Assembly: GCF_008000775.2 (NCBI RefSeq) | Contig: NZ_CP042905.2 | Coordinates: 1,140,001 to 1,172,000 of the forward strand | Length of the DNA stretch: 32,000 nt | Source of the DNA: Promethearchaeum syntrophicum | Lineage (GTDB): Archaea > Asgardarchaeota > Lokiarchaeia > Sigyniarchaeales > Promethearchaeaceae | Direction: 5' to 3' | Shown here: one piece after another, positions 1-27,980 of the stretch | How the letters are laid out: each line of letters starts with the position of its first letter | Position numbering within the stretch: position 1 is the stretch's first letter | Position numbers and translations under genes: made by a program | Notes under the pieces: generated by a model | The model's input: the letters and a program-made list of their open reading frames with translations, nothing else | Database searches by the model: none | Told to the model about the DNA's origin: nothing

Positions 1-3000
1 AGTTTTTCTACCTTCATCTAACCTGTCCGCCTGTTCAATTAGACCCGCTTCTCTTAATTTGATTGTTCCAGTTTTATAAAGCTCTACAGCTTTTGGATAG
101 GGGCATTCCAGAGATAATATTTTTCCTAAGCCGACTTCTTTTACATAAGCATTTACCACATCTTCAATTTTACTTAAATCACCTAAAACATTCTTTAATT
201 TTGATTCTTTCTTGGAAAGTACTTCAAGTTCTTTTTGGCGTTTTTCTCTTAATTCTTGCTCTTTGAGTTCTTTAATCCTTTGCGCTTCTTCCGCTTTCCT
301 TTCAATTTCTTCTTCATCTAACCGAGCTTTTTCTATTCTCTGAAATTCACGTTCGCGATGTTTCAGATCTTCAATAATTTTTCGTTCATAAGTTTTTCTA
401 CCTTCATCTAACCTGTCCGCTTGTTCAATTAAGCCAGCTTCTCTTAATTTAATTGTTCCAATTTTATAAAGCTCTACAGCTTTTGGATAGGGGCATTCCA
501 GAGATAATATTTTTCCTAAGCCGACTTCTTTTATATAAGCATTTACCACATCTTCAATTTTACTTAAATCACCTAAAACATTCTTTAATTTGGATTCTTT
601 CTTGGAAAGTACTTCAAGTTCTTTTTGACGTTTTTCTCTTAATTCTTTCTCTTTTAGTTCTATTAATCTTTGAGCTTCTTTAGCTCTTATCTCGATTTCT
701 TCTTCTCCTAATCTATATTTTTCTATTCTCTGAATTTCACGTTCGCGATGTTTCTCATCTTCAATAATTTTTCGTTCATAAGTTTTTCTACCTTCATCTA
801 ACCTGTCCGCTTGTTCAATTAGACCCGCTTCTCTTAATTTGATTGTTCCAGTTTTATAAAGCTCTACAGCTTTTGGATAGGGGCATTCCAGAGATAATAT
901 TTTTCCTAAGCCGACTTCTTTTACATAAACATTTACCACATCTTCAATTTTACTTAAATCACCTAAAACATTCTTTAATTTTGATTCTTTCTTGGAAAGT
1001 ACTTTAAGTTCTTTTTGGCGTTTTTCTCTTAATTCTTGATCTTTGAGTTCTATTAATCTTTGAGCTTCTTTAGCTTTTATCTCGATTTCTTCTTCTCCTA
1101 ACCTATATTTTTCTATTCTCTGAATTTCACGTTCGCGAAGTCTCTTATCTTCAATTATTTTCTGTTCATAAGTTTTTCTTCCTTCATCTAACCTGTCTGC
1201 TTGTTCAATTAAACCCGCTTCTCTTAATTTGATTGTGCCAATTTTATAAAGCTCTACAGCTTTTGGATAGGGGCATTCCAGAGATAATATTTTTCCTAAG
1301 CCGACTTCTTTTACATAAACATTTACCACATCTTCAATTTTACTTAAATCACCTAAGACATTCTTTAATTTTGATTCTTTCTTGGAAAGCGTTTCAAGTT
1401 CTTTTTGACGTTTTTCTCTTAATTCTTGCTCTTTGAGTTCTATTAATCTTTGAGCTTCTTTGGCTTTTATCTCGATTTCTTCTTCTCCTAACCTATATTT
1501 TTCTATTCTCTGAATTTCACGTTCGCGAAGTCCCTTATCTTCTTCGATTTTTCGTTCGTATGTTTTTCTACCATCATCTAACCTATCTGCTTGTTCGATT
1601 AGACCTGCTTCTCTTAATTTCTTTGTTCCTATATTATAAAGTTCTACAGCTTTTGGATATGGACATTCTAAGGACAAAATTTTACCTAAACCAACTCCTT
1701 TTGCATAATCATTAACAACATCTTCGATTTTACTAATATCACCTAAAACATCCTTTAATTTCGATTCTTTTTGAGAAATTGCTTCAAGTTCTTTTTGACG
1801 CTTATCTCTCAATTCTTTCTCTTTTAATTCTTGAATTCTTTGTGCTTCTTCCGCTTTCCTTTCAATTTCATCTTCATCTAACCGAGCTTTTTCTATTCTC
1901 TTTTTTTCGCGTTCACGAATCTTCTTATCTTCAAGAATTTTACTTTCGTAAGTTTTTCTTCCTTCATCCAAACGATTGGCTTGCTCAATTAAACCCGCTT
2001 CTCTCAATTTCTTTGTTCCAATATTATAAAGCTCAACTGCTTTTGGATACGGGCATTCTAAGAACAAAATCTTTCCTAAACCTACTTCTCTTGCATATTC
2101 GTTTACTACATCTTCAATTATACTAATATCGCCTAAAACATCTTTTAATTGTGATTCTTTTTGGGAAATTGCTTCAAGCTCTTTTTGCCGTCTCTCTCTT
2201 TGTTCCTTTTCTTTTTCTTCTTTTATTCTTAGAGATTCTTTAGCCTTTTGTTCAACCTCTTCTTCCTGTTTCTGAACATATTCTAAGTGTTTTCTTTTTT
2301 CTTCTTGATTTCTTTCAAAAATTAATAGTTTTTGCTTGTATGAGACTTCCCCATCTTTTAACAATTTTGAATGCTCATGAAATCCAATTTCGGATAATTT
2401 TTCACTACTTATTCGATATAATTCAATTGCTTCTGAATAACGGTTTTTTGCTTCAGTAAAATCTCCCTGTTGTTCCATAATATTTATTGCTTCTTCCATT
2501 TCACTTATTTTCGCAAGAATTTCTTTCAATTGATTATCTTTTTGAGTTAATTTTTCCAATTCATTCTGTCGTTTCGCTTTTGCTCTATTTAATTCTTCAT
2601 CTCTTAATTTTTGTGCTTCTTTTGCTTTTCTCTCGATCTCTTCTTTTTCTTGTTTGATATTTTCTAATCTTTGTTTTTCAAGTTCGCGAAGTTTCTCATC
2701 CTCAGTAATTTTTAGCTTGTATGTTTTACCCCCTTCTTCTAATCTGTCTGCTTGTTCAATTAAGCCTATTTCTCTTAGCTTATTTGTTCCAATATAGTAT
2801 AGCTCTACTGCTTTTGGATAAGGGCATTCTAAAGATAAAATTTTTCCAAGTCCGACTCGACTTTCATACCCACTTATAACTTCTTCAATTATACTTATGT
2901 CTTTAAGAACATCTTTTAATCGGGATTCTTTTTTAGATAATTCTTCTAATTCTTTTTGACGTTTTTCTTTTTCAATTCTTAATTTTTCATCCCTTAATAT

Positions 3001-3450
3001 TTGTGCTTCTTTAGCTTTCTTTTCAATCTCTTCTTCGTCTTGTTTAATTTTTTCTAATCTCTTTTTTTCTTCTACGCGCAGTTTTTCATCTTCAAAGATT
3101 TTTTGTTTGTACGTATTTTCTCCATCTGCTAAGCGATCAGCTTGGTCAAAGTATCCAATATCTCTTAGTTTTTTGCTTCCTTCTCCATAAGTTCTAATAG
3201 CATTTGGATATGGACATTCTAAAGATAGGATTTTGCCCAGATGAACTTGATTTTCATAATAATTAACTACATCTTCGATTTTACTGATATTTGACAATAC
3301 TTCCTTTAATTTCGCTTCTTTCTGAGAGAGAATCTCTAATTCCCTTTGACGTTTTTCTCGTTCCTCTTTTTCTTTGGATTCTCTTAGTTGTTGAGATTCT
3401 TTAGCTAGTTTCTCAATTGCTTCTTCATCTAAACGCTTTTTCATCAGGTT
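1..3450. repeat. In-frame tandem repeat array, 390-bp period, about 9 copies (1, 391, 781, 1171, 1561, 1951, 2341, 2721, 3111)
   Basis: The string agtttttcta/ccttcatcta/acctgtccgc recurs at 1, 391, 781 and 1171, and in diverged form at 1561 and 1951. Copies 1-4 differ by only a handful of bases over their first ~270 nt. Copies 5-9 diverge progressively, and the copy starting at 2341 is 381 bp. Confidence 0.9.
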
Positions 3451-4362
3451 TTCTTCTAGTTTTTTCTTTTCTGATTTTAGTTTTTCTCTTTGTTTAATGG
3501 TTAGGCTAATTTCTTCTTGAACTTCATTTGCTTCTTTTTGCCACCCAATTTTTTTGAAGATCTCTAAAGCTTCTTTATATGCATTCGTAGCTAAATCAAA
3601 TTGGTTTAAATTTCTAAATTGGATTGCTTCATCTAATAATGAAAGAGCTTTATCGCTTTTCGCTTTTTTAAGAAGTTCTTCCTTTTTATGTTCCATCTCA
3701 ATAGATTCTTGTAACCTTTTCTTTTCATCTTCTAATTTCCTTGATAGCTCTATTGTCTTTTGAGTTTCTTTTTGAGCTTCCCAAACTTTTTCGGCTTTTC
3801 TTTCATCATCTTTCAACTTTTTTTTATAATTTTGAAATTTATTTCTAGCATCATTTAATAATTCTAAAGTTCGGTTTACTTCTGCAGACCAGTTTATATT
3901 TTTAAAGTTTTCAAGTGCTTTCGTAAATGAATCTATACCTAATTGATAATCATCTTTTAATAAAGCTTTACTCCCCGTCTCTAAAAGATCATAGGCCTCA
4001 TTTGATAATTTTTCTTCAATTTCTTTCTTTTTCCTTAAAGCCTCTAATTTTTGATTTTTTTCTGCTGTCTTTCTATCTTGAAGTCGTTGACGAGCCGCTT
4101 CTAATTGTTTTTCTTTCTCTTTATTTTCAAGTTTTTTCTGTTCAATTTCCTTTTGTTTTCTAGCACGTTCTTCTTGAATTTTCACTTTTTTGTTAACTTC
4201 TTCAATCATAGATTTAATAGTCCTTACTCTTTCATCCCATCCCAGTTCAGTAGCCATATGTTTAGCTATCTCCAATTTTTGAAGACCTGAAGATATTTTT
4301 TTCTCTTGAATATCCAAATCTGCTTCGATGAGTAATAGATCAATTTTTTCTCGACTTGACAT
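1..4362 (-). CDS. Giant coiled-coil / TPR-like tandem-repeat protein, partial (3' end beyond the left window edge; at least 1,454 codons)
   Basis: ATG is the reverse complement of 4360..4362. Hand translation of the minus strand (codons aligned with position 1) gives MSSREKIDLLLIEADLDIQEKK... I checked every plus-strand triplet in that frame and found no TTA/CTA/TCA down to position 1. The sequence is E/K/R-rich heptad-like, interrupted by helical hairpins (e.g. VGLGKILSLECPYPKAVELYKTGTIKLREAGLIEQADRLDEGRKTY). It is missing from the ORF track only because it has no stop inside the window. Confidence 0.8.
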   Translation of the reverse strand, partial: MSSREKIDLLLIEADLDIQEKKISSGLQKLEIAKHMATELGWDERVRTIKSMIEEVNKKVKIQEERARKQKEIEQKKLENKEKEKQLEAARQRLQDRKTAEKNQKLEALRKKKEIEEKLSNEAYDLLETGSKALLKDDYQLGIDSFTKALENFKNINWSAEVNRTLELLNDARNKFQNYKKKLKDDERKAEKVWEAQKETQKTIELSRKLEDEKKRLQESIEMEHKKEELLKKAKSDKALSLLDEAIQFRNLNQFDLATNAYKEALEIFKKIGWQKEANEVQEEISLTIKQREKLKSEKKKLEENLMKKRLDEEAIEKLAKESQQLRESKEKEEREKRQRELEILSQKEAKLKEVLSNISKIEDVVNYYENQVHLGKILSLECPYPNAIRTYGEGSKKLRDIGYFDQADRLADGENTYKQKIFEDEKLRVEEKKRLEKIKQDEEEIEKKAKEAQILRDEKLRIEKEKRQKELEELSKKESRLKDVLKDISIIEEVISGYESRVGLGKILSLECPYPKAVELYYIGTNKLREIGLIEQADRLEEGGKTYKLKITEDEKLRELEKQRLENIKQEKEEIERKAKEAQKLRDEELNRAKAKRQNELEKLTQKDNQLKEILAKISEMEEAINIMEQQGDFTEAKNRYSEAIELYRISSEKLSEIGFHEHSKLLKDGEVSYKQKLLIFERNQEEKRKHLEYVQKQEEEVEQKAKESLRIKEEKEKEQRERRQKELEAISQKESQLKDVLGDISIIEDVVNEYAREVGLGKILFLECPYPKAVELYNIGTKKLREAGLIEQANRLDEGRKTYESKILEDKKIREREKKRIEKARLDEDEIERKAEEAQRIQELKEKELRDKRQKELEAISQKESKLKDVLGDISKIEDVVNDYAKGVGLGKILSLECPYPKAVELYNIGTKKLREAGLIEQADRLDDGRKTYERKIEEDKGLREREIQRIEKYRLGEEEIEIKAKEAQRLIELKEQELREKRQKELETLSKKESKLKNVLGDLSKIEDVVNVYVKEVGLGKILSLECPYPKAVELYKIGTIKLREAGLIEQADRLDEGRKTYEQKIIEDKRLREREIQRIEKYRLGEEEIEIKAKEAQRLIELKDQELREKRQKELKVLSKKESKLKNVLGDLSKIEDVVNVYVKEVGLGKILSLECPYPKAVELYKTGTIKLREAGLIEQADRLDEGRKTYERKIIEDEKHREREIQRIEKYRLGEEEIEIRAKEAQRLIELKEKELREKRQKELEVLSKKESKLKNVLGDLSKIEDVVNAYIKEVGLGKILSLECPYPKAVELYKIGTIKLREAGLIEQADRLDEGRKTYERKIIEDLKHREREFQRIEKARLDEEEIERKAEEAQRIKELKEQELREKRQKELEVLSKKESKLKNVLGDLSKIEDVVNAYVKEVGLGKILSLECPYPKAVELYKTGTIKLREAGLIEQADRLDEGRKT

Positions 4363-4441
4363 TATTATATTACCTTAAAATACATTAATTAAAAAATTCG
4401 ATTATGCTATCTACATTACAAAATTCTATTTTTAACTTAAA

Positions 4442-8661: not shown

Positions 8662-8807
8662 AAATTTCTGTAAATTCTTTAATAAAAACTTGTAATTTCT
8701 CTAATAAAAATTTGTTTATTTATAATTTTAAGTTATGTTTTTTGCAATTTTTCTAAAATAAAAATAAGAAAGTTGAAAAGTTTGTAAAAAAAAGATGAAA
8801 AAAAATC

Positions 8808-10247
8808 TTATTCCTTTAAAATTTCCATTTTTCGAAGTTTTTCTTTAAATTTCTCGATATCTTGTAATCTTTCTCGTTTTGCTTTTTCGTGCGCCTCTAA
8901 TTCTTTAGGATCGATTTTAAATAAGGTAACCCCTTTTCCGATATTTTTCATCAGTTCTTCTAAAACATCTAGTTTATTTTTAACATTACTTAACTTTTGT
9001 AACCTTTGATTCTTGGCAGTCTCATATTCTTTAAGGTCTTCTTCATTAATTCTACTCAAAGGAATTTCATTAGAAATAGTATTTACTAATTCTTCAGCAA
9101 CATCCAGATGATTCTTAAGAACTTGGATTCTTGATCTCCTTTGGAATCTCTCTGCTTCATATTTTTGTAATTCTTCATTAGAAATATGCTCTAAACTTGG
9201 CGCTTCTTGAATTTCTTTCAAAAGCTGATTTGAAATATCGAACTTTGCTTTTATATTCTCTTTTGTTCTTTTTACCTCTGCTATTCTTTTTAATTTTTCC
9301 TGTTCATATTCCTTTTTATCTTCTTCAGCAATAGGTTTTAATGATACTCCTTTCATCTCAACAAAAAGTTGTTCTACTTTATTTAGTTTTGCTTGGATAC
9401 CAGTTAATTCTTCAAGTTTTTCTGTTTTATTCTTTGAAATTTTCTTTAAGTAATTATCTGCTATTTCAAATTTTTCTAAAAATTCAATTTTCATCTCTTC
9501 TGGTAGATCTGGTTTAATTTCTTTTGCAATCTCCTCAACTAGTTCAATGATAACCTCCATTTTAGTCTTAATTTTGCTAACATCCTTCATACGCCGTTTT
9601 CTATCCTTCGCGAGTTCTTTTAATTCTTTTTCGTCTACGGGATTTAGCTTTAACTCTTTGCTTGAGATTTCTTCTAAAATATTACCAAATTGATTTAAAT
9701 GAAAATTTGCTTCATTTAAAGTTTTTAATCTCTTTTGCTTTTCTTCCTCATATTTTTGTATTTCTTTCTGATCAATTTTTTCAAGTTGTTCAATTGGATT
9801 TTGTGAAATCTCCTCTAAGATTGTTGAGAAAGATTTCAATTTTTCAATTGCGTTTTGTTTTTCTTTCTGATATTTCTTTAGATCATCTTCATCGACTTTT
9901 TTAAGTTGTGGAGCCTGGCTAATCTCTTCTAGGAGAGTTTGAGTGTGATCAACAGTTTCTTTTAATTTTAAGAATTTTTCTCTTCTCTCTTGTTTATACT
10001 TTTCATATTCTCCTTTTTCTTTTAAATCAATTGCTTTTAGTTGTATTTTACCTTCCAATAATTCTTCCATCATATCTTTTGCATTATCGTACAATAGTTT
10101 AACGTCGTCAATCTTCTTCATTCTCTCTTTTCGTTTTTCTTCATAAATTTGCTTCTCATCCGCGTTAATCCCTACTAAATTCACTTTTTTTTCTAATAAT
10201 TCCTTCTGAAGATCCTTTATTTTTTTTTTTTCTTCTTCTTCGACCAT
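8808..10247 (-). CDS. Coiled-coil protein with about 10 degenerate 40-48-aa repeats
   Basis: 479 aa and E/K-rich. A unit like LLEEIsxxPxLxx(I/V)DxxELxKYExEKxxRLxxL recurs (e.g. LLEEISQAPQLKKVDEDDLKKYQKEKQ, ILEEISQNPIEQLEKIDQKEIQKYEEEKQKR, LLKEIQEAPSLEHISNEELQKYEAERFQR). Confidence 0.7.
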   Translation of the reverse strand: MVEEEEKKKIKDLQKELLEKKVNLVGINADEKQIYEEKRKERMKKIDDVKLLYDNAKDMMEELLEGKIQLKAIDLKEKGEYEKYKQERREKFLKLKETVDHTQTLLEEISQAPQLKKVDEDDLKKYQKEKQNAIEKLKSFSTILEEISQNPIEQLEKIDQKEIQKYEEEKQKRLKTLNEANFHLNQFGNILEEISSKELKLNPVDEKELKELAKDRKRRMKDVSKIKTKMEVIIELVEEIAKEIKPDLPEEMKIEFLEKFEIADNYLKKISKNKTEKLEELTGIQAKLNKVEQLFVEMKGVSLKPIAEEDKKEYEQEKLKRIAEVKRTKENIKAKFDISNQLLKEIQEAPSLEHISNEELQKYEAERFQRRSRIQVLKNHLDVAEELVNTISNEIPLSRINEEDLKEYETAKNQRLQKLSNVKNKLDVLEELMKNIGKGVTLFKIDPKELEAHEKAKRERLQDIEKFKEKLRKMEILKE

Positions 10248-11205: not shown

Positions 11206-11862
11206 TTACACTCTTTTTCCAAATATTGCAGTTCCAATACGAACCATGTTTCCACCTTCCGCAATTGCAACTCTATAATCTCCAGACATTCCCATGCTTA
11301 AAATATCAAGATTATAATCTTTTTTGTATTTATCAAATAATGTTTTCATTTTTTTGAAAAAATTCTTTGAATTTTCATTAAAAGGGGGGATACACATTAA
11401 TCCTCGGAGTTTAAGGTTTTTTAAAGATTTAATATGCTCCACTAAGTCAAAAAGGTTCTCTTGGTTAATTCCGCCTTTGCTTATTTCAGCTCCGATATTT
11501 ATCTCAATTAAAATTGGCATTATTTTTTTTAATTCTGCACATGCATTATTTAACTTTTGTGCAAGTTTGATTGAATCAATTGATTGAATCATGTCAAAAT
11601 ATTGTGCAGCGAGCTTTACTTTATTAGATTGAAGGTGTCCGATGAAATGCCATTTTATCTCCTTCAAATTTTTTAATTTATTAATTTTTGGGATAGCGTC
11701 TTGAATATAATTTTCTCCAAAGTCTCTCTGTCCTAAATTATATGCCTCTTCAATGAGTTCAACTGGTTTTTTCTTGGAAACTGCAACGAGTTTTACATTT
11801 TCGGGAATTTTCAGGTTTTCTATGTTTTTTCCAATATTACTTGGTAAATTTTTATCTTCCAA
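11206..11862 (-). CDS. yggS: YggS/PROSC-family PLP-binding protein
   Basis: VKLVAVSKKKP (PLP lysine context), FGENYIQD, HFIGHLQSNK and C-terminal MVRIGTAIFG are all typical of YggS. The start codon is TTG, with no upstream in-frame ATG. Confidence 0.85.
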   Translation of the reverse strand: MEDKNLPSNIGKNIENLKIPENVKLVAVSKKKPVELIEEAYNLGQRDFGENYIQDAIPKINKLKNLKEIKWHFIGHLQSNKVKLAAQYFDMIQSIDSIKLAQKLNNACAELKKIMPILIEINIGAEISKGGINQENLFDLVEHIKSLKNLKLRGLMCIPPFNENSKNFFKKMKTLFDKYKKDYNLDILSMGMSGDYRVAIAEGGNMVRIGTAIFGKRV

Positions 11863-11907: not shown

Positions 11908-12525
11908 TTATTTCTTTTTTTGAAAAAAATAATCCAGAAATCCAAATTTATATTTTGAATCGAGCTCCAATCGATGAATAAATTTCTTCTGTTTTTCTAG
12001 AATATGCACATCTTTTAGCATGATTTCACATTCCTCTTCAGTTAAAAGAGTATGGATAACTTTTTCTCCATCAAAAATTTCAACATATTCACCCGGTGCT
12101 AGTTCTTCTGCACTTTTATGGAGATCGTCATCAATATCTAAAAAATTTATAAACCCAATACCACCAGGTTTAAGAATTCGAATCATTTCATTAACAGCTT
12201 GATGAATTTCTTTTTTAGTCATATGGAAAATAGTATTGTAAGAGTATACAGCATCAAAAGAATTATCTTCAAATGGAATTTCTTTCATATTTGCTTTTTG
12301 CAGGTTAATTTCAATATTATTTTCCTTAGCAAATTGCTTCGCTGACTCTAAGGAATCATCAGAAATATCAATTCCATATAAATCCTTATATCCGTATTTT
12401 GCTAAAAGCCCTAATTTAGGGTATCGCCCCCCTGCACCACAATCAAGGATTTTATTTCCAACTTCTTTCTGTTTTAAAAACCACAAAAAATCATATATTT
12501 CTGTTGTGAATTCATTTCGATTCAT
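11908..12525 (-). CDS. Class I SAM-dependent methyltransferase
   Basis: ILDCGAGGR (motif I), LYGIDISD (motif II acidic residue) and FDAVYSYNTIFHM match a Methyltransf_11/25-like layout. It lies 37 bp downstream of the nucleotidyltransferase gene. Confidence 0.8.
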   Translation of the reverse strand: MNRNEFTTEIYDFLWFLKQKEVGNKILDCGAGGRYPKLGLLAKYGYKDLYGIDISDDSLESAKQFAKENNIEINLQKANMKEIPFEDNSFDAVYSYNTIFHMTKKEIHQAVNEMIRILKPGGIGFINFLDIDDDLHKSAEELAPGEYVEIFDGEKVIHTLLTEEECEIMLKDVHILEKQKKFIHRLELDSKYKFGFLDYFFQKKK

Positions 12526-12562
12526 AAATCTAAACCTCTAATAACTCAATTATTAATTTTAA

Positions 12563-13285
12563 TTATAATTTCTTTTGAATTTGCTTTGCTAAATTTAAAT
12601 CATCAAGCGTATCAATTTCCATGCAAAATTCATTTACAATATCCAAAGGGATCAAATTTATTGTATCTGAGATCTCATTAAAAGCATTTTCAGCATAACA
12701 AGAAGTATTATTGTTTTTTACGAATTTCTCAATATTATTCATCCATAATTCAAAGTCTTCTTTAGTCCAATAATAAAGAGGGAGTAGGAATATGGCTTTT
12801 TCTCCAAATACGTCAATTCCAATTTTTGTTATTTTTCCATTTTGGATTAATCCCTTAAAATCCTTTTCAGGTAATGGGGTTGCTCGATCAACGATAGCGG
12901 AACTTTTTTTTTGTTTGACTATTTTTTGAATCACAGATTTTTCAAACACTAAATCTCCATGTAATAGAAGAATATCGTCATCATTGATTTCACTTCTCGC
13001 CAGCCACATTGAATAAATATAATTTGTAGATTCGAATTTTGGATTATTGGGATATATTACATCTAATTCGGGGAATTTTTCGTTTACATGATTAATTATT
13101 TTATCTTGTAAAGGACCAGTGGTGATAATATATTTTTTTACTCCGACTGATAATAATAATTCAATCTGGCGCTGTAAAATCGATTTTCCGTTTATTTCTA
13201 ATAAACATTTTGGCAAATTATCTGTTAAAGGTTTCAATCTGCGCGCTAAACCAGAATTTAAGATTAATGCTTTCATAGGTTTCAT
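12563..13285 (-). CDS. LicC/GlmU-type nucleotidyltransferase (candidate phosphonate or phospho-alcohol cytidylyltransferase)
   Basis: N-terminus KALILNSGLARRLKPLTDNLPKCLLEINGKSIL is the NTP-transferase signature (G-x-G-x-R-L...P-K). 240 aa. Confidence 0.75.
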   Translation of the reverse strand: MKPMKALILNSGLARRLKPLTDNLPKCLLEINGKSILQRQIELLLSVGVKKYIITTGPLQDKIINHVNEKFPELDVIYPNNPKFESTNYIYSMWLARSEINDDDILLLHGDLVFEKSVIQKIVKQKKSSAIVDRATPLPEKDFKGLIQNGKITKIGIDVFGEKAIFLLPLYYWTKEDFELWMNNIEKFVKNNNTSCYAENAFNEISDTINLIPLDIVNEFCMEIDTLDDLNLAKQIQKKL

Positions 13286-13300
13286 CTTTGATATTTATCT

Positions 13301-14470
13301 TTATAATAGTGTATGTAAAATTTTCCTTAATTTGTCTTCAGTTAATTTTCTGGGATTGTGCTTCACACGATCGGGAGTAAACCCTTCAGCGATTATCAAT
13401 TCAATTCCTTTCTTATCTATTCCAACTTCATGCAATTTAGTGGGTAAATTAAGAGTTGTCATCAAATTTGTTATCATCTGTGCAGCATTATCAGGTGAAT
13501 CTGCTCCAATCGCATCTGAGATTTTCCTTAACCGATCAGGGGCTTCATCTATGTTATTTTCAGTTTTTTCAGAATTGAATAAAAGAAATTGACTAAGTGT
13601 CAATGCACAAGCTAGTCCATGAGGGACATTGAAATGTAATGTAATTGGATAAGAGACTGAATGAACCGCAGTAGTTTTTGTATTGCTAAATGCTAAACCA
13701 GATAATAAACTTCCAAATGCTAGATTTTTTCGGATGTCAATATTTGAAGGATCTTTGAAAATCTCTTGGAGATTTGAAAATATAATAGGAATTGCTTGCA
13801 AAGCATAAATATCAGAAATCTTATTATGGTTTTTTGACCAATAAGCTTCAATAGCTTGACTGAATGCATCCAATCCCGTAATAACTGACATTTTTTTCGG
13901 TAAACTTTTGACTAGCGTTGGATCAATAATAGCACCTTTTGCATACATCTTAAGGTCAGATAAAGAATACTTTTTTTGCTTTTCTCCCAAATCCCAGACT
14001 GTAGCCCATCGAGTAACTTCAGAACCGGTTCCGGATGTTGTAGGTACTTCTATCAAAGGAATTCCATAATTTTCAAGAGTTTTACCTTCTTTAAGATACA
14101 GATTAATACTCCCTGGATTATTTCCTAATATTGCCATACATTTAGCAGTATCCATGGCGGATCCTCCTCCAATTCCAATTATTAAATTGTAATTCTTATT
14201 CCTGACTAAATTTGCTCCATTATCAATAATCTTTATCGAGGAGAAATATCCTTCTTTTTCAAAAATCTCAACTATAAAACCATCTTTTTCTAATAATTCA
14301 AGAATTTTTTCGGAAATTCCCAAAATATTTAGAAGGTTTTTATCAGTGACAATAAGTATCTTAGCATTTTTTATACTTTTTGTATATTTTTGAACAATCT
14401 CGGAAATATTTAGTAGTGAATTTATTCCAAATAGGACTTCCACCGGATTGTAATAAGTTTTCAATGTCAT
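13301..14470 (-). CDS. Group III iron-containing alcohol dehydrogenase (candidate phosphonoacetaldehyde reductase)
   Basis: GIGGGSAMDTAK and PTTSGTGSEVT motifs are present. It sits immediately downstream of ppd. The track start at 14479 is TTG, and the first ATG (MTLKTYYNP...) is at 14470. Confidence 0.8.
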   Translation of the reverse strand: MTLKTYYNPVEVLFGINSLLNISEIVQKYTKSIKNAKILIVTDKNLLNILGISEKILELLEKDGFIVEIFEKEGYFSSIKIIDNGANLVRNKNYNLIIGIGGGSAMDTAKCMAILGNNPGSINLYLKEGKTLENYGIPLIEVPTTSGTGSEVTRWATVWDLGEKQKKYSLSDLKMYAKGAIIDPTLVKSLPKKMSVITGLDAFSQAIEAYWSKNHNKISDIYALQAIPIIFSNLQEIFKDPSNIDIRKNLAFGSLLSGLAFSNTKTTAVHSVSYPITLHFNVPHGLACALTLSQFLLFNSEKTENNIDEAPDRLRKISDAIGADSPDNAAQMITNLMTTLNLPTKLHEVGIDKKGIELIIAEGFTPDRVKHNPRKLTEDKLRKILHTLL

Positions 14471-14503
14471 CTTTATCAATTTTCAATTTTTTTTTTTTTT
14501 ACT

Positions 14504-15631
14504 TTAATCTTGAAGAAATTTCATAAAATAGTCTTTATTTTGAATTGGAGTAGTGGTAGGTCTTCCCAAATCATCTCGTGAGCCTTTTTTGACTTTAATA
14601 ATTAACATTGATGGTCCTTTTCCATCTTCCTTGAACATCTTATTTAATGCAATTTTCAATTCTTCTTTATTATTTGCTTGATAAACTGAAGTATAGCCAC
14701 TTCCAAGACAAATTTCTTTGAAATTGATGGTATCTGAGACAGTAGGTTGTCCCCCTGTAGATTCATGAGCATTGTTATCAATTAATATATGGAAAAAGTT
14801 CTCTGGATGATAGTGTCCAATAGTAGTTAGTGCACCAAGCTGCATAATTAATGCGCCATCACCATCTAATACAACAGTTTTTTTCTTTGAATTCAATGCT
14901 ATGCCTAAAGCGATTGAAGAAGTGCATCCCATCGAACCTACTGTGTAGAAATCGCGTGGATTTTCTCCTCTCGCAATTCTTAACTCAAAAATTTCTCGAG
15001 AAGTTTTACCTGTTGTTGAAACAATAACCTCGTCACCAGTGAAGGATTCAATTATTGTTTTTAATGCTTCTTCCCTCGTCATTTCATAAGTAATTTCTTT
15101 TCTTTTTGTACTAGTAAAAGGTTCAATTATGTTTTTTTTTACAATCAAAGCATAGGGTTTTTTATTGTCCTTAAAGAAAATTGAAATTTTTTGTAGTACC
15201 TGCTCAAATTCTGATAGAGTTTCTGGTAAATAACTATAGGGAATTTCTAGTGCTTCTAAAATAGGTATCATAACTCTTCCCATTTTTTTATGTTGAGGTT
15301 CATCCTTCTTACCTGGTTCACCCCTCCATCCAATCATTAATAATATTGGTATAGAATATACTTCAAAATCTGCCAGAGAAGTAATAGGATTGACCGTTTT
15401 TCCAAATCCAGAATTTTGCATATATACAACTCCAACATTTTTTGTTGCTAAATGATAACCTGAAGCAATAGCCACTGCTTCACACTCATTACAAGCAATA
15501 ATATTTTTCAATTCATTTCCATTATTTTCATCTAAATAGGTCATCCACGCTTTAAAAGTTGAATCAGGAACACCCGTAAAGAAAGAAAAATTGTGTTTTT
15601 TAAAACCATTCCAAATTTCATTACAATTCAT
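14504..15631 (-). CDS. ppd: Phosphonopyruvate decarboxylase (ThDP-dependent)
   Basis: It has N-terminal FFTGVPDS and the ThDP motif GDGALIMQLGALTTIGHYHPENFFHILIDNN. At ~375 aa it is typical of Ppd/ComDE, and it lies 18 bp downstream of pepM. The track start at 15640 is GTG, and the first ATG is at 15631. Confidence 0.8.
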   Translation of the reverse strand: MNCNEIWNGFKKHNFSFFTGVPDSTFKAWMTYLDENNGNELKNIIACNECEAVAIASGYHLATKNVGVVYMQNSGFGKTVNPITSLADFEVYSIPILLMIGWRGEPGKKDEPQHKKMGRVMIPILEALEIPYSYLPETLSEFEQVLQKISIFFKDNKKPYALIVKKNIIEPFTSTKRKEITYEMTREEALKTIIESFTGDEVIVSTTGKTSREIFELRIARGENPRDFYTVGSMGCTSSIALGIALNSKKKTVVLDGDGALIMQLGALTTIGHYHPENFFHILIDNNAHESTGGQPTVSDTINFKEICLGSGYTSVYQANNKEELKIALNKMFKEDGKGPSMLIIKVKKGSRDDLGRPTTTPIQNKDYFMKFLQD

Positions 15632-15649
15632 ATTATTCACACCAGCACT

Positions 15650-16945
15650 TCAAATTGGTATTAAATCAAGTATTTCTTTAATCGAGATACAATATTTATC
15701 AGAAGCTTCTTTCGCTCTATGATTTGTTAAAATTGATTTTGCGGTTTTCAGCATATTCGGATATGCACTTCTGAGAAGCTGATTTGCATAAATTACAACT
15801 TTAATTCCTGCACTTATTAATTCTTCTTCAGTAATTTGGGAATATGTGCTTGGAACAACAACTAACGGAACTTTATCTTTTAAATTATTGTAATTTTTAC
15901 AAAAAGTTAGAATCTCATCAGGATTATCTTCTTTACTATGAATCATAATACCATCAGCTCCCGCCTTGATATATGCTTTAGCGCGTTTCAAAGCATCTTC
16001 TTGACCTTGTTTAAGTATAAGACTTTCAATTCGTGCAATAATCATAAAGTCTTTAGTTACTTGGGCTTTTTTTCCTGAATTGATTTTAGTAGAGAAGTTT
16101 TCAATGGTATCTTGACGTTGAACTACATCAGTTCCAAATAGAGAATTTCTCTTCATACCCACTTTATCTTCAATAATAACTGCTGAAATCCCCAATCTTT
16201 CTAAAGTTTTAACGGTATATAAAAAATGTTCAACTAATCCCCCATTGTCTGCATCAACAATCATTGGTTTGGTTGTTACATCGAGAATTTCATTAATTGT
16301 CCTTATTCTTGACGTAATATCGACGCACCCCGTATCCGGTTTACCTTTAGAGGTAGAATCTGTTAAACTACTCTCCCACATCCCATCAAACTCTCTAAAA
16401 GATTCTCCTTCATAAATACCCGTTAATTCCGCAATTCTTCCTGTTAATCCATTATGTGTTTCGAGTATTCTAACAATAGGTTTCATTTGAATAAGTGTTC
16501 TTAGTTTCTTAAGTCGCTTTTCTGGCGTGGTCCCTACTCCAAATTTATCTTTAATTAATTGTCCAGAGTTTAATCCTTCTGTGAATTCTGGTTCAATCAA
16601 ATTTCCATCCCATTCTTTTAAAACTTCTATTACCTGCAATCTAGTATTCTTTAAAGGACCTTCTTTCCAATCATCACCGTGGACTACATATTCTGGTTTG
16701 ATTTTTCTTAAATTCTCACTATAGTCTAAAGAATTCTGGGGGATTATTTCTGATACTCCTTGAATATTTTCAATGACCTCCTTTCTCTGTTGATAATTTA
16801 AAACGGGAAGTCGTTTGTATGTAGCAATCGCTTCATCTGTAAGCAACCCTATTATAACTTGACCGAGTTTCCTTGCTTCTTTAATGATTCGAAGATGTCC
16901 CGGATGTATGAAATCAGCTGAAAGTGCAACATAAACCTTTGTCAT
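15650..16945 (-). CDS. pepM: Bifunctional cytidylyltransferase (HxGH type) - phosphoenolpyruvate mutase fusion
   Basis: The N-terminal ~135 aa (YVALSADFIHPGHLRIIKEARKLG) show the TagD-like HxGH nucleotidyltransferase motif. The C-terminal ~290 aa contain ETHNGLTGRIAE, MWESSLTDS and VDADNGG. They also carry the PepM-diagnostic EDKVGMKRNS (EDKX5NS) at 16142..16171, verified at the nucleotide level. The track start at 16957 is TTG, and the ATG is at 16945. Confidence 0.85.
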   Translation of the reverse strand: MTKVYVALSADFIHPGHLRIIKEARKLGQVIIGLLTDEAIATYKRLPVLNYQQRKEVIENIQGVSEIIPQNSLDYSENLRKIKPEYVVHGDDWKEGPLKNTRLQVIEVLKEWDGNLIEPEFTEGLNSGQLIKDKFGVGTTPEKRLKKLRTLIQMKPIVRILETHNGLTGRIAELTGIYEGESFREFDGMWESSLTDSTSKGKPDTGCVDITSRIRTINEILDVTTKPMIVDADNGGLVEHFLYTVKTLERLGISAVIIEDKVGMKRNSLFGTDVVQRQDTIENFSTKINSGKKAQVTKDFMIIARIESLILKQGQEDALKRAKAYIKAGADGIMIHSKEDNPDEILTFCKNYNNLKDKVPLVVVPSTYSQITEEELISAGIKVVIYANQLLRSAYPNMLKTAKSILTNHRAKEASDKYCISIKEILDLIPI

Positions 16946-17033
16946 ATTTTCTATCAAGCAATCATTGAAAAAAAAGTTTCAACATTTATTGCATGGATCA
17001 AAGAATTTTAGGAATGAAAAATGATAGTAATAT

Positions 17034-17990
17034 ATGATTTCCTTTGACGATATTCAAAATGCTTATGAAAGAATTAAAAAAAATGTCAATCACACCCCAA
17101 TTGTAACTTCCAGAACTTTAAATGACATGACTAAAGCTCAAATATCCCTTAAATGTGAAAATATGCAAAGAGTAGGTGCATTCAAATTTAGAGGTGCGTA
17201 TAATGCCTTAAGCCAATTAAGTGAAGAGGAGAAGGAACGAGGTGTAATTACACATTCAAGTGGAAATCATGCTCAAGCTGTAGCTCTCGCATCGAAAATT
17301 CTCGGAATTCAAGCTACAATTGTAATGCCTAACACGTCCCCTTTGTGTAAAGTAAATGCAACAAGAAAAACGTATGAAGCCAATGTTGTATTTTGTCAAA
17401 ATTCTCAAGATTCAAGACGTCAAACAACTGAAAAATTAATCGAAAAAAACAATTATACTCTTATTCATCCATATGATAACGATAATGTAATTGCGGGAGC
17501 TGGAACCGCAGCTTTGGAATTTTTAAATGAAAAACCTAATTTAGATGTGATAATGGCCCCAGTTGGAGGGGGTGGGTTATTATCGGGTTCTTCAATTGCT
17601 GTTAAAGGATTTAATCCAAAAATTATAGTTTATGGAGCAGAACCATTGAATGCCGATGATGCTTATCGGTCATTCAATTCAGGACAAGTTGAAATTAATG
17701 AAGATCCAGATACCATAGCAGATGGATTGCGAACTACTCTCTGTGAAAGGACTTTACAGATAATAAAGGAGAATGTTGATGAAATTTTCTTAGTAAGTGA
17801 ACAAGAAATTATTGAAGCCATGGAGTTTGTGTGGACAAGAATGAAAATTATTATTGAGCCTTCCAGTGCTGTTCCAATTGCTGCAATTCTGTCTGGAAAA
17901 GTGCCCATTGAAAATAAGAAAGTTGGAATTATAATAAGTGGTGGAAATTTTAATTTATCTGAATTTTTTGATGAATTTAAAAAGTTATAA
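17034..17990 (+). CDS. Fold-type II PLP enzyme, serine racemase / threonine ammonia-lyase family
   Basis: KCENMQRVGAFKFRGAYNAL (PLP lysine), THSSGNHAQAVALAS and APVGGGGLLSG are present. 318 aa with no ACT regulatory domain. Confidence 0.8.
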   Translation: MISFDDIQNAYERIKKNVNHTPIVTSRTLNDMTKAQISLKCENMQRVGAFKFRGAYNALSQLSEEEKERGVITHSSGNHAQAVALASKILGIQATIVMPNTSPLCKVNATRKTYEANVVFCQNSQDSRRQTTEKLIEKNNYTLIHPYDNDNVIAGAGTAALEFLNEKPNLDVIMAPVGGGGLLSGSSIAVKGFNPKIIVYGAEPLNADDAYRSFNSGQVEINEDPDTIADGLRTTLCERTLQIIKENVDEIFLVSEQEIIEAMEFVWTRMKIIIEPSSAVPIAAILSGKVPIENKKVGIIISGGNFNLSEFFDEFKKL

Positions 17991-18112: not shown

Positions 18113-19378
18113 ATGAACCAAAAAAAATTGAAAAGATCCAAACCAGAACAGAAAGCTGAAGATCCCTACGATCTTAAATTAGAGAACTTTGTCTACGGTG
18201 ATACACCATCCCCCCGACCAGAGAAATATAAAGATCCTTTGCACATCTGGGATTCTATCGATGAAAAAACAGAATTCCTATATATTCACTATTTAAATAA
18301 GATAAAAAAATCTGGCAAATTACTTATTAACGACATCTACCATCAACATCCAAATGCGACTTTAATAAATTTATTCGAATTTCCTCCTAATTCGGTTGAA
18401 AATCTCCGCGATTTCCCAAAAAATTTAACCAATCTTAAAATGTTCGTAATTTACTCGAATAGTATTAAATCTATTCAAGGATTCCCCAAAGATCTTCCGA
18501 ATTTAAAAATTCTCAATTTAAAATCCTCGCAAATTTCTGATTTAACACCTCTTCCTGAAAATTTGCCGTCATTAGAGAGATTTTTTATCAGTAAATGCAA
18601 GATCATATCTCTTAAAGGAATACCCAAAGATTTACCTAAATTAGATAGATTTTTTGTAGATTCGATTCCCATTAAAACCTTAGAAGGAATTCCATCAATT
18701 CTTCCAAATCTTACACACTTGAAAATCAAAAATAATCCTATCAAATCCTTGAAATATCTACCCAAATCTCTACCTTCGGTTGAAAAAATCGAAATTTCAG
18801 GCACAGACATCACAAACCTTCAGTTCATGCCCCAACACATGCCTAAACTCAAGGAAATGATTCTTACCCATAACCACCTCATAACTCTCAAAGGTATGCC
18901 TCCCAATTTACCTTCTCTCACAAATCTGAATCTTCGGAATAATTCTCTTGCACATCTCAAACATTTGCCTAAGGTTGGACATATTGGTTGCATCATAAAT
19001 CTTAAGGATAATTCCATCCGTACCCTTCACGGGCTTGATGACCGATTTCTAAAACAGTTGTTGCATATGGCTAAAAATTTCAACTTATGCCCACAAGGGT
19101 TAAATCTTATTAAAGATCTGCGCCTCCGACATATTACTTTGGAAAAAGTTAATGAAGTAAAAAATTTCTACACAAAATCATCCCATGAGCTCGCCCAACA
19201 ATATGTTACCAACATAAAATCCCTCAATGACTGTGAAATTGACCGGTTAATTTGGGAAGCTGATTTAACTGATCGAAAATTGGTTGAAAATAATGTTCCT
19301 CCCGAAAACCTCGTTCTGAGTGCAATATCTCAGCGTTTAAAGATCCCTTTTAATTCTGATTTTTCTCTCTTAAAATAA
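18113..19378 (+). CDS. Leucine-rich repeat protein (nine exact 23-aa LRRs)
   Basis: Repeats start at aa 101, 124, 147, 170, 193, 216, 239, 262 and 285. Examples are FPKDLPNLKILNLKSSQISDLTP, LPENLPSLERFFISKCKIISLKG and MPPNLPSLTNLNLRNNSLAHLKH. There is no obvious signal peptide or TM segment. Confidence 0.8.
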   Translation: MNQKKLKRSKPEQKAEDPYDLKLENFVYGDTPSPRPEKYKDPLHIWDSIDEKTEFLYIHYLNKIKKSGKLLINDIYHQHPNATLINLFEFPPNSVENLRDFPKNLTNLKMFVIYSNSIKSIQGFPKDLPNLKILNLKSSQISDLTPLPENLPSLERFFISKCKIISLKGIPKDLPKLDRFFVDSIPIKTLEGIPSILPNLTHLKIKNNPIKSLKYLPKSLPSVEKIEISGTDITNLQFMPQHMPKLKEMILTHNHLITLKGMPPNLPSLTNLNLRNNSLAHLKHLPKVGHIGCIINLKDNSIRTLHGLDDRFLKQLLHMAKNFNLCPQGLNLIKDLRLRHITLEKVNEVKNFYTKSSHELAQQYVTNIKSLNDCEIDRLIWEADLTDRKLVENNVPPENLVLSAISQRLKIPFNSDFSLLK

Positions 19379-19413: not shown

Positions 19414-21057
19414 TTACATCATACCCGGAGGCATTCCGCCCATACCACCCATACCGCCTGGAGGTCCACCGGAAGATTTTCGGGCTTTAATCATATCATC
19501 TATTCGTAAAATCATGACTGAAAGTTCGGTAGCAGACTTGATTATTTGGTCAATGTTCGCCACTGGCTCAATTACTCCGCTAGCTCGATTATCGACCACT
19601 TTACCTTGATATATTTCCAATCCTGCAAATTCATTACCTGGTTTTGAGTGTTCTCCGCGGAGTTCTGCAATTATATTAATTGGATCTAATCCTGCGTTCT
19701 CAGCTAATGTGATTGGGATAATTTCCAATGCTCTAGCATAAGATTCAATAGCTATCTGCTCTTTACCTGATTGTTTGGAAGCCAAATTCAATAATCTTTG
19801 GGATAATTCCATTTCAACGGCTCCACCACCACCGACTATTGCATTTCTATCGTGAACCGAAGCAATAACACATAAAGCATCATGTAAGGTTCTTTCTGCT
19901 TCATCTAAACCCGCTGTGACTCCCGCTCTTAGCAAAATTGAAACTGCCTTTGGATTTTTACAGCCAGAAATAAAACACAAATCATCTCCTGCGATTTTTT
20001 TAAATTCAACCTTTTTAGCGAATCCTAGGTCTTTTTCTGTCAAACTGTTGATGTTCTCAACGATTTTGCCTCCAATAGCCTTCTGAATCTTTTCAAGATC
20101 AGATTTAGTCACAGATTTAACAGCAACAATGCCATATTTATGTAGGAAATGACTTACCGAATCTTCGATTCCTTTTTGATTGATGACTACATTTGCACCT
20201 GATTCTTTGATTTTCTCTGCATAGTGTTTTAAAATTGATTCTTCTTGATCTAAGAAGTTCTGGATTTCATTTGGATCGCTAATTTTTAAATCACTGGAAA
20301 ATTCAGTTTTCTTTATCTCGAAAGCTTGTGATATTAGAGCAATTTTTGCGTTATCTACGATTTTTAGCATCATTTGGTGAGTTGGTTCTTTTTCTAAGAT
20401 GATTCCATCGATTATTTGAGACTCTTTAATCGACTTTCCCTTCTTCTTGACAATCACGATATTTTTTACCTTTGCCATATTGTTCTTTTCAGATTTGACT
20501 TTTGAAAATGCATCTACGGCAAGATCTGAAAAGAATTCTTTATTTCCACTTATACCTTTACTATTCATAGTAGTTATTGCAATATTTTTTAGGATTTCAC
20601 GGTCTTTACTAGGATCGATACTTACTGCAATTTCATCTTTTAAGATTTCTCGAGCCCTTTTACCTGCTAAAGAATAACCACGAGCGACAATTGAAGGATG
20701 GATTCCTTGACTCATTAATTCATTAGAGACTGTGAGCAATTGACCGGCGATTATAACACTGCTTGTTGTTCCATCACCCACATTTGTATCTTGAGTTTTA
20801 GAAATCGTAACTGCCATTTTTGCACCTGGGTGTTCAACATCTAAATTTTCTAAGATTGTGGCACCATCATTAGTAACGGTTATATCTCCTAATGAATCAA
20901 CTAACATTTTATCCATACCTCTTGGACCGAGGGTGGATTTTACTGCTTCTGCAACTGCTTGAATAGCGACGATGTTTTTCGAACGAGCATCATTCCCTTT
21001 TGTATGTTCGGAGCCCTCTCTAAGTACCAAAATGGGCATTCCGCCGAGTTGTGACAT
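19414..21057 (-). CDS. ths: Thermosome subunit (group II chaperonin)
   Basis: LGPRGMDKMLVD, ITNDGATIL, VGDGTTS and GGGAVEMELS motifs are present. 547 aa with a C-terminal GGPPGGMGGMGGMPPGMM tail. Confidence 0.95.
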   Translation of the reverse strand: MSQLGGMPILVLREGSEHTKGNDARSKNIVAIQAVAEAVKSTLGPRGMDKMLVDSLGDITVTNDGATILENLDVEHPGAKMAVTISKTQDTNVGDGTTSSVIIAGQLLTVSNELMSQGIHPSIVARGYSLAGKRAREILKDEIAVSIDPSKDREILKNIAITTMNSKGISGNKEFFSDLAVDAFSKVKSEKNNMAKVKNIVIVKKKGKSIKESQIIDGIILEKEPTHQMMLKIVDNAKIALISQAFEIKKTEFSSDLKISDPNEIQNFLDQEESILKHYAEKIKESGANVVINQKGIEDSVSHFLHKYGIVAVKSVTKSDLEKIQKAIGGKIVENINSLTEKDLGFAKKVEFKKIAGDDLCFISGCKNPKAVSILLRAGVTAGLDEAERTLHDALCVIASVHDRNAIVGGGGAVEMELSQRLLNLASKQSGKEQIAIESYARALEIIPITLAENAGLDPINIIAELRGEHSKPGNEFAGLEIYQGKVVDNRASGVIEPVANIDQIIKSATELSVMILRIDDMIKARKSSGGPPGGMGGMGGMPPGMM

Positions 21058-26881: not shown

Positions 26882-27400
26882 CTAATTTTCTTTTAAAGTG
26901 AATTTCCAAGCGCAATAATATTCTTCAGGATGAATATCAGGTGGGCAACAAATGCATTCGGTTTCTATTCGATCATCAATTGTTGAAGCGAAATAGCTGT
27001 ATTCAACAATACCCACAGATTTACAAGGAAAGTCTTCTAATCCTTTTCTAGTTCTTGCAGTTTGAACTCTACATTTATTCATATGGAATACACATGAATT
27101 ATCTGTTATGTCGATAATTTCCTGGACATTTATATTCGCATATAGGCGAAATTTTAAAGCTTTTATCAAACCAGGAATTCCTGGGTGTTCTTCAAGTTTC
27201 AGAAATTTTTTAATTTGTTTTGCTTCAATTTGTGTGAAACGCTGCCATCCAATTCTATCGTATTTCATTGCAGTGTCAATTCCTAATTCTGATTCAATTC
27301 CTTGGAACCAACAGCCATCATGAGCGAGCCAGTTTTTTGAAAGCATCTCAATATAATCCAGAAGTTCATCTCTACTAAGATCTTTCAGATCGATTCTCAT
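26882..27400 (-). CDS. Conserved-looking hypothetical protein with a C-terminal cysteine cluster
   Basis: 172 aa with NWLAHDGCWFQG near the N-terminus. Cysteines occur at ...NKCRV..., ...FPCKS... and ...ETECICCPPD... No family assignment is possible by eye. Confidence 0.55.
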   Translation of the reverse strand: MRIDLKDLSRDELLDYIEMLSKNWLAHDGCWFQGIESELGIDTAMKYDRIGWQRFTQIEAKQIKKFLKLEEHPGIPGLIKALKFRLYANINVQEIIDITDNSCVFHMNKCRVQTARTRKGLEDFPCKSVGIVEYSYFASTIDDRIETECICCPPDIHPEEYYCAWKFTLKEN

Positions 27401-27969: not shown

Positions 27970-27980
27970 AGGGAAAAAAT

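Follow-up and report, generated by a model that had tools for sequence, protein, structure and literature searches.

A predicted four-gene hydroxyethylphosphonate cassette with two unrelated nucleotidyltransferases in the Asgard archaeon Promethearchaeum syntrophicum

Gene organization of the phosphonate locus

A 32-kb stretch of the genome of the archaeon Promethearchaeum syntrophicum (NZ_CP042905.2, positions 1,140,001 to 1,172,000; hereafter the window, in which all positions are counted) contains a minus-strand run of six tightly spaced genes between 11.2 and 17.0 kb, the first four of which form a cassette predicted to make and activate 2-hydroxyethylphosphonate (HEP). In the order of transcription, the six genes encode a Fom1-like bifunctional cytidylyltransferase-phosphoenolpyruvate (PEP) mutase (CyT-PepM; 435 aa, 15650-16957), a phosphonopyruvate decarboxylase (Ppd; 378 aa, 14504-15640), an iron-containing alcohol dehydrogenase (Fe-ADH; 392 aa, 13301-14479) predicted to be a phosphonoacetaldehyde reductase of the PhpC/FomC type, a nucleotidyltransferase (NTase) of the LicC/PntC fold (240 aa, 12563-13285), a class I S-adenosylmethionine (SAM) methyltransferase (205 aa, 11908-12525), and a YggS-family protein (11206-11862). 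The intergenic gaps, from CyT-PepM to yggS, are 9, 24, 15, 37, and 45 bp, and such tight spacing is usual along the entire minus-strand run. The G+C content is ~30% across the window, and the cluster shows no break in composition. The NTase is 100% identical to a protein of P. syntrophicum, and a Logan contig of run DRR199588 matches the locus without differences. A previous reading of the letters alone (the sequence-only reading) had delimited the methyltransferase, NTase, and PepM-fusion genes, and all three were placed correctly, on the minus strand.

CyT-PepM, Ppd, and Fe-ADH

CyT-PepM scores 382 bits with TIGR02320, over the cut-off of 320, and is composed of an N-terminal HxGH cytidylyltransferase domain (about 16538-16957, minus strand; Pfam CTP_transf_like, 5e-15) and a C-terminal PEP mutase domain (about 15653-16504, minus strand; Pfam PEP_mutase, 3e-53). 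The structure of the Fom1 cytidylyltransferase domain (PDB 5x3d) matches residues 8-134 with E = 3.7e-47, about three-fifths of the positions being identical in the printed alignment, and the PEP mutase structures 5unc/1m1b match the C-terminal part (E about 1e-40). The nucleotide-binding HxGH motif, HPGH in the translation, occupies residues 18-21 (16895-16906, minus strand), exactly where the sequence-only reading had located it; in an alignment-based count, H18, G20, and H21 are each shared by 90% or more of 65 related domains. The domain order, the HPGH motif, and the 5x3d match confirm the Fom1-like fusion that this reading had proposed. The segment EDKVGMKRNS (16142-16171, minus strand), located by a regular-expression match, conforms to the EDKxxxxxNS motif, the Ppm criterion that parts true PEP mutases from other enzymes of the isocitrate lyase family (PMC6697681), and this motif was present in 69 of 69 PepM open reading frames (ORFs) of the related loci described below.

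Ppd contains TPP_enzyme_N and TPP_enzyme_C domains and scores 446 bits with TIGR03297 (cut-off, 312.5). The third protein matches Pfam Fe-ADH and ADH_Fe_C. Like the PhpC, FomC, and DhpG reductases, it belongs to the Fe-ADH family, has a phosphonate-associated model as its top NCBIfam hit (TIGR03405, Phn_Fe-ADH), and is encoded directly after Ppd, but its score of 253 bits is below the family cut-off of 424, and its activity is a prediction. The genomic context is strongly supportive of a phosphonate-associated role.

Co-conservation and fusion of the two transferases

In a survey using one genome per species, at least 563 stretches were found to encode relatives of the NTase, and the best 80 loci were fetched and searched with the window proteins by tblastn and blastp. 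PEP mutase, Ppd, and Fe-ADH accompany the NTase in 69, 65, and 68 of these 80 loci, respectively, and of the 11 that lack PEP mutase, 6 are represented by short or truncated contigs. The archaeal loci derive from two Promethearchaeum metagenome-assembled genomes (MAGs), Lokiarchaeum ossiferum, Woese-/Nanoarchaeota (DPANN), Methanosarcinales, Thermoplasmata, and Bathyarchaeia, and the bacterial loci from Clostridia, Bacteroidales/Prevotella, Erysipelotrichaceae, Spirochaetes, Chloroflexi, and Patescibacteria.

The NTase, cytidylyltransferase, and PepM domains form a single ORF (~668 aa) in 44 of the 80 loci, all bacterial; fusions of the NTase to the cytidylyltransferase domain alone (two loci) and to the ADH (one locus) were also found. 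The N-terminal domain of the fetched bacterial triple fusions shares 43-49% identity with the window NTase, which is its free-standing form. In seven loci (L010, L017, L021, L028, L038, L076, and L078), the HxGH domain is absent and PepM instead carries a C-terminal GT-A-type NTase domain; these loci still have the separate LicC-type gene, indicating that the second transferase has been retained through a non-orthologous replacement of the first. The pairing of both transferases with the PepM pathway, proposed in the sequence-only reading, is therefore well founded: their joint conservation extends over two domains of life, and fusions are frequent. That reading would have been undermined by a sugar-1-phosphate-specific LicC-like enzyme lacking co-conservation with pepM; pepM is in fact co-conserved.

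The association was also sampled in reverse by fetching 80 metagenome loci on the basis of CyT-PepM similarity (59-72% identity). These contain Ppd in 64 cases and ADH in 55, and the LicC-type gene in 9 (11 with relaxed coverage). Among the 23 loci with the full CyT-PepM/Ppd/ADH triad and at least 1.5 kb of sequence on each flank, 4 carry the LicC-type gene. This frequency suggests that the common core consists of CyT-PepM, Ppd, and ADH and that the LicC-type enzyme, as an accessory second activator, marks a subtype, to which the cassette of the window belongs.

Family, fold, and pocket of the LicC-type nucleotidyltransferase

The NTase matches Pfam NTP_transferase and NTP_transf_3 and carries the NCBI label 'sugar phosphate nucleotidyltransferase'. 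In a family-profile search, its closest solved sequences, both aligned over the full length, were LicC (1jyk, 1.7e-23) and PntC (6pd1, 1.3e-19), which are also its nearest solved relatives by single sequence and by predicted fold. The AlphaFold model (mean predicted local distance difference test score, 94) retrieved LicC 1jyk in Foldseek with E = 8e-18 and template modelling (TM) scores of 0.84/0.88, and PntC 6pd2 with a TMq of 0.85. The assignment of the second transferase to the LicC-type fold in the sequence-only reading thus agrees with both sequence matches and the structural model.

The NTase signature SGLARRLKPLTDNLPK (residues 11-26; 13208-13255, minus strand), delimited in the family alignment, is a variant of the motif GxG(T/S)Rx(4-8)PK as defined in PMC6697681 and contains the catalytic Arg16 and Lys26. 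The second Gly is replaced by Ala in the window protein and is either Gly or Ala across the family; conservation of S11, G12, R16, and K26 reaches 98% or more among 79 sequences. With catalytic motifs preserved to this extent here, and in at least 90% of the 65 HxGH domains, neither transferase looks like a dead domain. An alignment of 14 NTase homologues (49-82% identical to the window protein) showed a tight subfamily with many invariant residues.

The correspondence of pocket residues was read from a sequence-profile alignment rather than from superposed structures, with residue roles taken from PMC6697681. In the invariant segment His109-Gly-Asp111 (12953-12961, minus strand; profile alignment to 6pd1), Asp111 aligns with the metal-binding Asp, and the invariant His109 of this HGD motif aligns with Glu104 of Tde-PntC and Asp105 of LicC, which contact the substrate amine. 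The invariant Glu199 matches PntC Glu196 and LicC Asp192, and the aromatic-box stretch TNEWF of LicC aligns with an invariant PEKDFK, containing two lysines, in the NTase subfamily. The His109 and PEKDFK replacements suggest that the pocket of this subfamily is neither that of PntC nor that of LicC; as predicted from the alignment, it fits a non-amine substrate such as HEP, without proving it.

The NTase thus shares with PntC (Tde1415 and Ari1348) and with LicC of Streptococcus pneumoniae the GT-A fold, the signature Arg and Lys, and the metal-binding acidic residues, and its gene adjoins ppm, but it is only ~23% identical to them. Of the two acidic amine contacts of the AEP (2-aminoethylphosphonate)-specific PntC (Tde Glu104 and Glu196), only the latter is kept, as Glu199, the other being replaced by His109; the aromatic box and the nearby lic genes of the phosphocholine-specific LicC are both lacking. 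Moreover, PntC is tied to AEP transaminase, whereas the family of the window NTase is tied to an alcohol dehydrogenase, i.e. to the HEP branch, and AEP transaminase was found in none of the 80 loci. The sole recurrent aminotransferase cluster in these loci looks DegT-like (sugar type), judging from its sequence.

The adjacent methyltransferase

The methyltransferase (Pfam Methyltransf_11/25/31, E-values down to 5e-22; SAM motif LDCGAGG at 12427-12447, minus strand) has as its closest solved structure 2p8j (E = 7e-49), a structural-genomics protein without an assigned function. The sequence-only reading had counted it among the tailoring enzymes and suggested an O-methylation like that of DhpI, the O-methyltransferase of dehydrophos synthesis. 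The two enzymes share the class I SAM fold and a position next to phosphonate genes, but DhpI is not among the 58 PDB matches at E ≤ 0.01, the window enzyme is not detectably nearer to DhpI than generic class I enzymes are, and it is not co-conserved with pepM. The gene lies beside the cassette in none of the 80 loci; weak matches (34%) in L010 and L045 are kilobases away and belong to other subfamilies. In two sister Promethearchaeum MAGs (L007 and L008), whose NTases are 87 and 84% identical to that of the window, yggS comes immediately after the NTase gene.

The nearest homologues of the methyltransferase on usable contigs were found in unrelated neighbourhoods in L. ossiferum (62% identity), in three further contigs (56-64%, one annotated as Lokiarchaeota), in an Asgard MAG (39%), and in the bacteria Dethiothermospora (41%) and Oceanirhabdus (46%). 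Seven of nine contexts of the gene (L002, L003/4, L005/6, L088, L089, L170, and L171) lack phosphonate neighbours, and no general conserved partner gene was found across its contexts. In L. ossiferum, the orthologue (L002, 10001-12570) adjoins an APH/choline-kinase-like gene and another methyltransferase gene, and an FGGY kinase gene is located 2-3 kb from the orthologue in two other Lokiarchaeia (L003 and L088).

A 1-kb contig of a related strain (L087) has the NTase gene immediately upstream of the methyltransferase gene (81 and 85% identity, respectively). The NTase-methyltransferase adjacency is therefore common to one sub-lineage and polymorphic within the genus, and the distribution of the orthologues suggests that, in the MK-D1 lineage of P. 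syntrophicum, the gene was relocated to its present position by the cassette. In the window, the gene lies on the same strand 37 bp downstream of the NTase gene, with GAGG 9 nt upstream of the ATG; this 37-bp spacer shows no obvious terminator, in a genome whose AT-richness makes the reading of promoters and terminators weak. To judge from this arrangement, the methyltransferase is probably co-transcribed with the cassette in MK-D1, but in compact archaeal genomes, co-transcription supports a common function only weakly. The methyltransferase is probably a lineage-specific neighbour inserted between the NTase gene and yggS, not required for the cassette, and a bystander except in one narrow lineage. 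Neither its membership in a tailoring set nor the DhpI-like reaction proposed by the sequence-only reading was thus borne out.

Surroundings of the cassette

The ORFs of the 80 genome loci were clustered, and the recurrent clusters were annotated. The recurrent neighbours of the cassette include GT2 glycosyltransferases (23 loci), LicD (17-20), NAD-epimerases (18), Bac_transf (11), and sulfatases (5), as well as TagF-like CDP-glycerol glycerophosphotransferases in 10-26 loci, some fused to YidC. CDP-alcohol phosphotransferases (CDP-OH_P_transf) occur in 7 of the 80 genome loci and in 8 of the 80 metagenome loci. An extra stand-alone HxGH transferase was found in 10 of the 80 loci, nearly all archaeal and mostly DPANN. 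This neighbour set is the signature of cell-envelope decoration. The frequencies of LicD, TagF-like, and CDP-OH proteins were compared between loci with and without the LicC-type gene (55 and 11 loci with adequate flanks, respectively), giving Fisher p = 0.43, 0.73, and 1.0.

The P. syntrophicum and L. ossiferum cassettes are 'naked', with no surrounding glycan genes. The sole acceptor-enzyme candidate in the window is a divergent CDP-OH_P_transf protein (23673-24569, minus strand) encoded 6.7 kb from the cassette, whose best NCBIfam model is archaetidylinositol-phosphate synthase (score, 52 bits; cut-off, 180) and whose gene lies near that of a GlpK-like FGGY kinase (25160-26749, minus strand); this enzyme could use CMP-HEP, the cytidine monophosphate conjugate of HEP.

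All window ORFs of at least 100 aa outside the cluster were scanned, except the thermosome-like gene (19414-21057; Cpn60_TCP1) and short ORFs within larger genes. Among the scanned ORFs of the 32-kb window, there is no radical-SAM/B12 (Fom3-like), HppE-like, or MpnS/HEPD-like protein and no aminotransferase, which upholds the absences listed in the sequence-only reading, and there is no FomD-like gene. No fosfomycin resistance kinase is present in the window, and the domain scan of its ORFs revealed no choline kinase or LicD.

Two further gene associations were observed in related loci. Genes for a NUDIX hydrolase, a major facilitator superfamily (MFS) transporter, and a third GT-A-type NTase flank the cassette in both L. 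ossiferum (L009, 3033-6028) and a Thermoplasmata locus (L021, 4463-7392); this trio could be a module for hydrolysis of a CMP conjugate and export of the product. In four DPANN loci, the cassette is adjoined by genes for B12-binding radical-SAM proteins, the enzyme class of Fom3 (L011, 4331-5800; L012, three copies; L015, 768-; and L018, 14033-), which hints at C-methylation of CMP-HEP outside Streptomyces.

Comparison with known systems

The architecture found here has precedents. Rice et al. (2019; Nat Commun 10:3698; PMC6697681) surveyed Ppm fusions and gave figures of 33% for fusion to PF12804 and 23.6% for fusion to PF01467, along with 42 'triple fusion' proteins bearing both, and also noted clusters in which a ppm-fused transferase is accompanied by a second transferase one to two genes away. 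The statement in the sequence-only reading that the combination is not a known pathway was therefore too strong. The triple fusions contain the same three domains as found here, a PF12804/PF00483-type NTase, the PF01467 HxGH domain, and the PF13714 PEP mutase with EDKx5NS; in the window and in the other archaeal HxGH-fusion loci, however, the LicC-type domain is not fused ahead of CyT-PepM but encoded by a separate gene after the ADH gene. Rice et al. counted this architecture, without assaying it or tying it to the ADH (HEP) branch (PMC6697681). The same authors showed that two LicC-like PntC enzymes make CMP-AEP and proposed a Lic-like tailoring logic with a final LicD-type transfer to cell-surface glycans (PMC6697681). 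According to Li and Horsman (2022; PMC8942020), the ADH (HEP) branch accounts for 8.5% of ppm neighbourhoods, and most families of this branch have no known product. Our literature search found no report on the role of the second transferase or on CMP-HEP transferases beyond these two studies, and no paper mentioning phosphonates in Asgard archaea.

Measured against the phosphonyl-tailoring (Pnt) logic of Ppm, Ppd, branch enzyme, NTase, and transferase, the coupling of NTase and ppm is evident (69 of 80 loci with PepM and 44 of 80 fused). For the phosphotransferase step, the window offers only the divergent CDP-OH_P_transf 6.7 kb away and nothing adjacent to the cassette, whereas LicD, TagF-like, and CDP-OH proteins are found in related loci. 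The fosfomycin cluster of Streptomyces wedmorensis shares with the window a two-domain CyT-PepM (Fom1) followed by Ppd (Fom2) and an Fe-ADH of the FomC type, but the window lacks Fom3 (B12 radical SAM), Fom4/HppE, FomD, and the resistance kinase. The fosfomycin cluster is not known to contain a LicC-type transferase.

The cluster in P. syntrophicum is accordingly a new archaeal (Asgard), split-gene member of a known and widespread cassette that is biochemically unsolved.

Proposed pathway and alternative explanations

By their family assignments, PepM would convert PEP into phosphonopyruvate and Ppd would decarboxylate the latter to phosphonoacetaldehyde, which the Fe-ADH, judged by family and context, would reduce to HEP. 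The HxGH domain may then form CMP-HEP, given its close similarity to the sole assayed domain of its kind. The LicC/PntC-fold NTase is predicted to be a second, accessory activator whose substrate is HEP or another, similar intermediate of the route rather than a sugar phosphate; the 44 loci with a fusion to CyT-PepM and the conserved catalytic residues suggest this role. The activated phosphonate would be handed to a transferase encoded elsewhere in the genome, of the LicD-like, TagF-like, or CDP-alcohol type seen in related loci, and, given these transferase types, the end product is most likely a cell-surface glycan or lipid decorated with phosphonate. The nucleotide-activated HEP envisaged by the sequence-only reading is a sensible prediction in the light of the co-conserved, fused transferases that accompany PepM, Ppd, and ADH. 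Taken as a whole, a four-gene HEP cassette with the NTase as second activator, serving surface glycan or lipid decoration, and with the methyltransferase as a bystander, is the explanation that we consider probable.

Several observations weigh against it. Two activating enzymes for one small substrate lack an explanation, as a Fom1-type domain alone suffices in fosfomycin biosynthesis. The LicC-type gene accompanies the full triad in only 4 of 23 metagenome loci, which makes its role an extra one, and its substrate could be some other compound; if the pocket alignment is right, the two lysines leave room for a charged, more anionic substrate than HEP. The Fe-ADH scores below the cut-off of its phosphonate-associated family model. 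No acceptor-transferase gene adjoins the cassette in the window or in L. ossiferum, and the surface destination is deduced from other organisms only. As to the methyltransferase, both its position 37 bp downstream on the same strand, with a GAGG before its start codon, and its recurrence next to the NTase gene in L087 would suit a local add-on step. A further reading, rather unlikely, is that the two transferases perform two undescribed activations, either on two different intermediates between PEP and HEP or yielding two differently activated donors for two acceptors. The archaeon would then decorate its envelope or lipids with HEP, to which the neighbouring methyltransferase of this strain may add a methyl group, and the invariant His109/PEKDFK pocket would stand for a specificity new to phosphonate nucleotidyltransferases. 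That the LicC-type enzyme is instead an ordinary sugar-1-phosphate, phosphocholine, or inositol-phosphate NTase of glycan or lipid synthesis, merely neighbouring phosphonate genes, is very improbable. Its NCBI label, its top NCBIfam models (IPCT-DIPPS, AglF, and archaeal GlmU), and its third Foldseek match, a glucose-1-phosphate thymidylyltransferase, point in that direction, but all of the NCBIfam scores are far under their cut-offs (e.g. 73 versus 580 bits), LicC and the phosphonate-specific PntC are nearer by both profile and fold, and 44 of 80 loci have the LicC-type gene as part of an in-frame CyT-PepM fusion, with phosphonate genes adjoining it in ~70 of 80, in two domains of life.

The cassette might also make a free small-molecule phosphonate, with cytidylylation being transient as in fosfomycin biosynthesis and no surface decoration taking place. 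The closeness of CyT-PepM to Fom1 is in line with this, as are the lack of an adjoining LicD, TagF, or glycosyltransferase gene in the window and L. ossiferum, the NUDIX and MFS genes in L. ossiferum and the Thermoplasmata locus, which could hydrolyse a CMP conjugate and export the product, and the Fom3-class genes beside the cassette in DPANN. We nevertheless regard it as unlikely, because the 32-kb window has no Fom3-, FomD-, HppE-, or MpnS-like gene, most related loci sit within glycan or teichoic-acid-type gene sets, and a divergent CDP-alcohol phosphotransferase is encoded 6.7 kb away. Similarly improbable in our judgement is a genuine tailoring role of the methyltransferase in its sub-lineage, with O-methylation of HEP or CMP-HEP, or methylation of the acceptor, leading to a product beyond the reach of the cassette alone. 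HEP-phosphonoglycans of Glycomyces and Stackebrandtia reportedly contain SAM-derived O-methyl sugars; unrelated class I methyltransferases adjoin the cassette beside a CDP-OH transferase in L010 and L076; and the gene order and spacer already described for the window and L087 also favour such a role. The tight spacing is, however, ordinary along the whole gene run; the gene is absent from beside the cassette in all 80 loci, with the NTase gene abutting yggS in two Promethearchaeum genomes of similar divergence; orthologues in Lokiarchaeia (56-64%) and in Clostridia and another Asgard archaeon (39-46%) are without phosphonate neighbours; and the nearest structure, 2p8j, is without a known function, while DhpI was not matched.

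The cassette leads to the prediction that a C-P compound is made by the first cultured Asgard archaeon and by its relative L. ossiferum. The window isolates a minimal four-gene version, free of glycan genes, of a cassette that hundreds of genomes from gut, rumen, sediment, and DPANN carry. It also raises the question of what makes many phosphonate clusters hold on to a pair of unrelated nucleotidyltransferases, even where one of the pair has been exchanged for a non-orthologous enzyme. With regard to annotation, the LicC-type gene should not carry the name sugar phosphate nucleotidyltransferase, and the methyltransferase should not be taken as a phosphonate-tailoring enzyme.

Other features of the window

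A divergent PALP enzyme (17034-17990) and YggS were considered as pathway members and rejected; both represent ordinary housekeeping families, and their position next to the cassette is conserved in none but the closest genomes. Several proteins in the window are eukaryote-like, as is typical of Asgard genomes: a 647-aa protein with zf-RING_2 at its C-terminus (29577-31520, minus strand), a 421-aa leucine-rich-repeat protein (18113-19378, plus strand), and an ORF (≥1458 aa) with weak tetratricopeptide repeat matches that runs off the left end of the window (1-4374, minus strand). A 479-aa Lys/Glu-rich protein (8808-10247, minus strand) has no Pfam match and has an orthologue in the sister MAG L007; as read from the translation, it contains internal repeats of ~45 aa of the form '..LEEIS..P.L.K.D..E..KYE.EK..R'. 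Between this gene and a gene for an AsnC-type regulator lies a 22-bp tandem repeat (2.1-2.7 copies; 8669-8726). The regions 26882-27400 (minus strand) and 27619-28619 (plus strand) encode a DUF6125 protein (E = 2e-76), a DsrE-like protein, and a weakly HAD/acid-phosphatase-like protein, with no link to the cluster.

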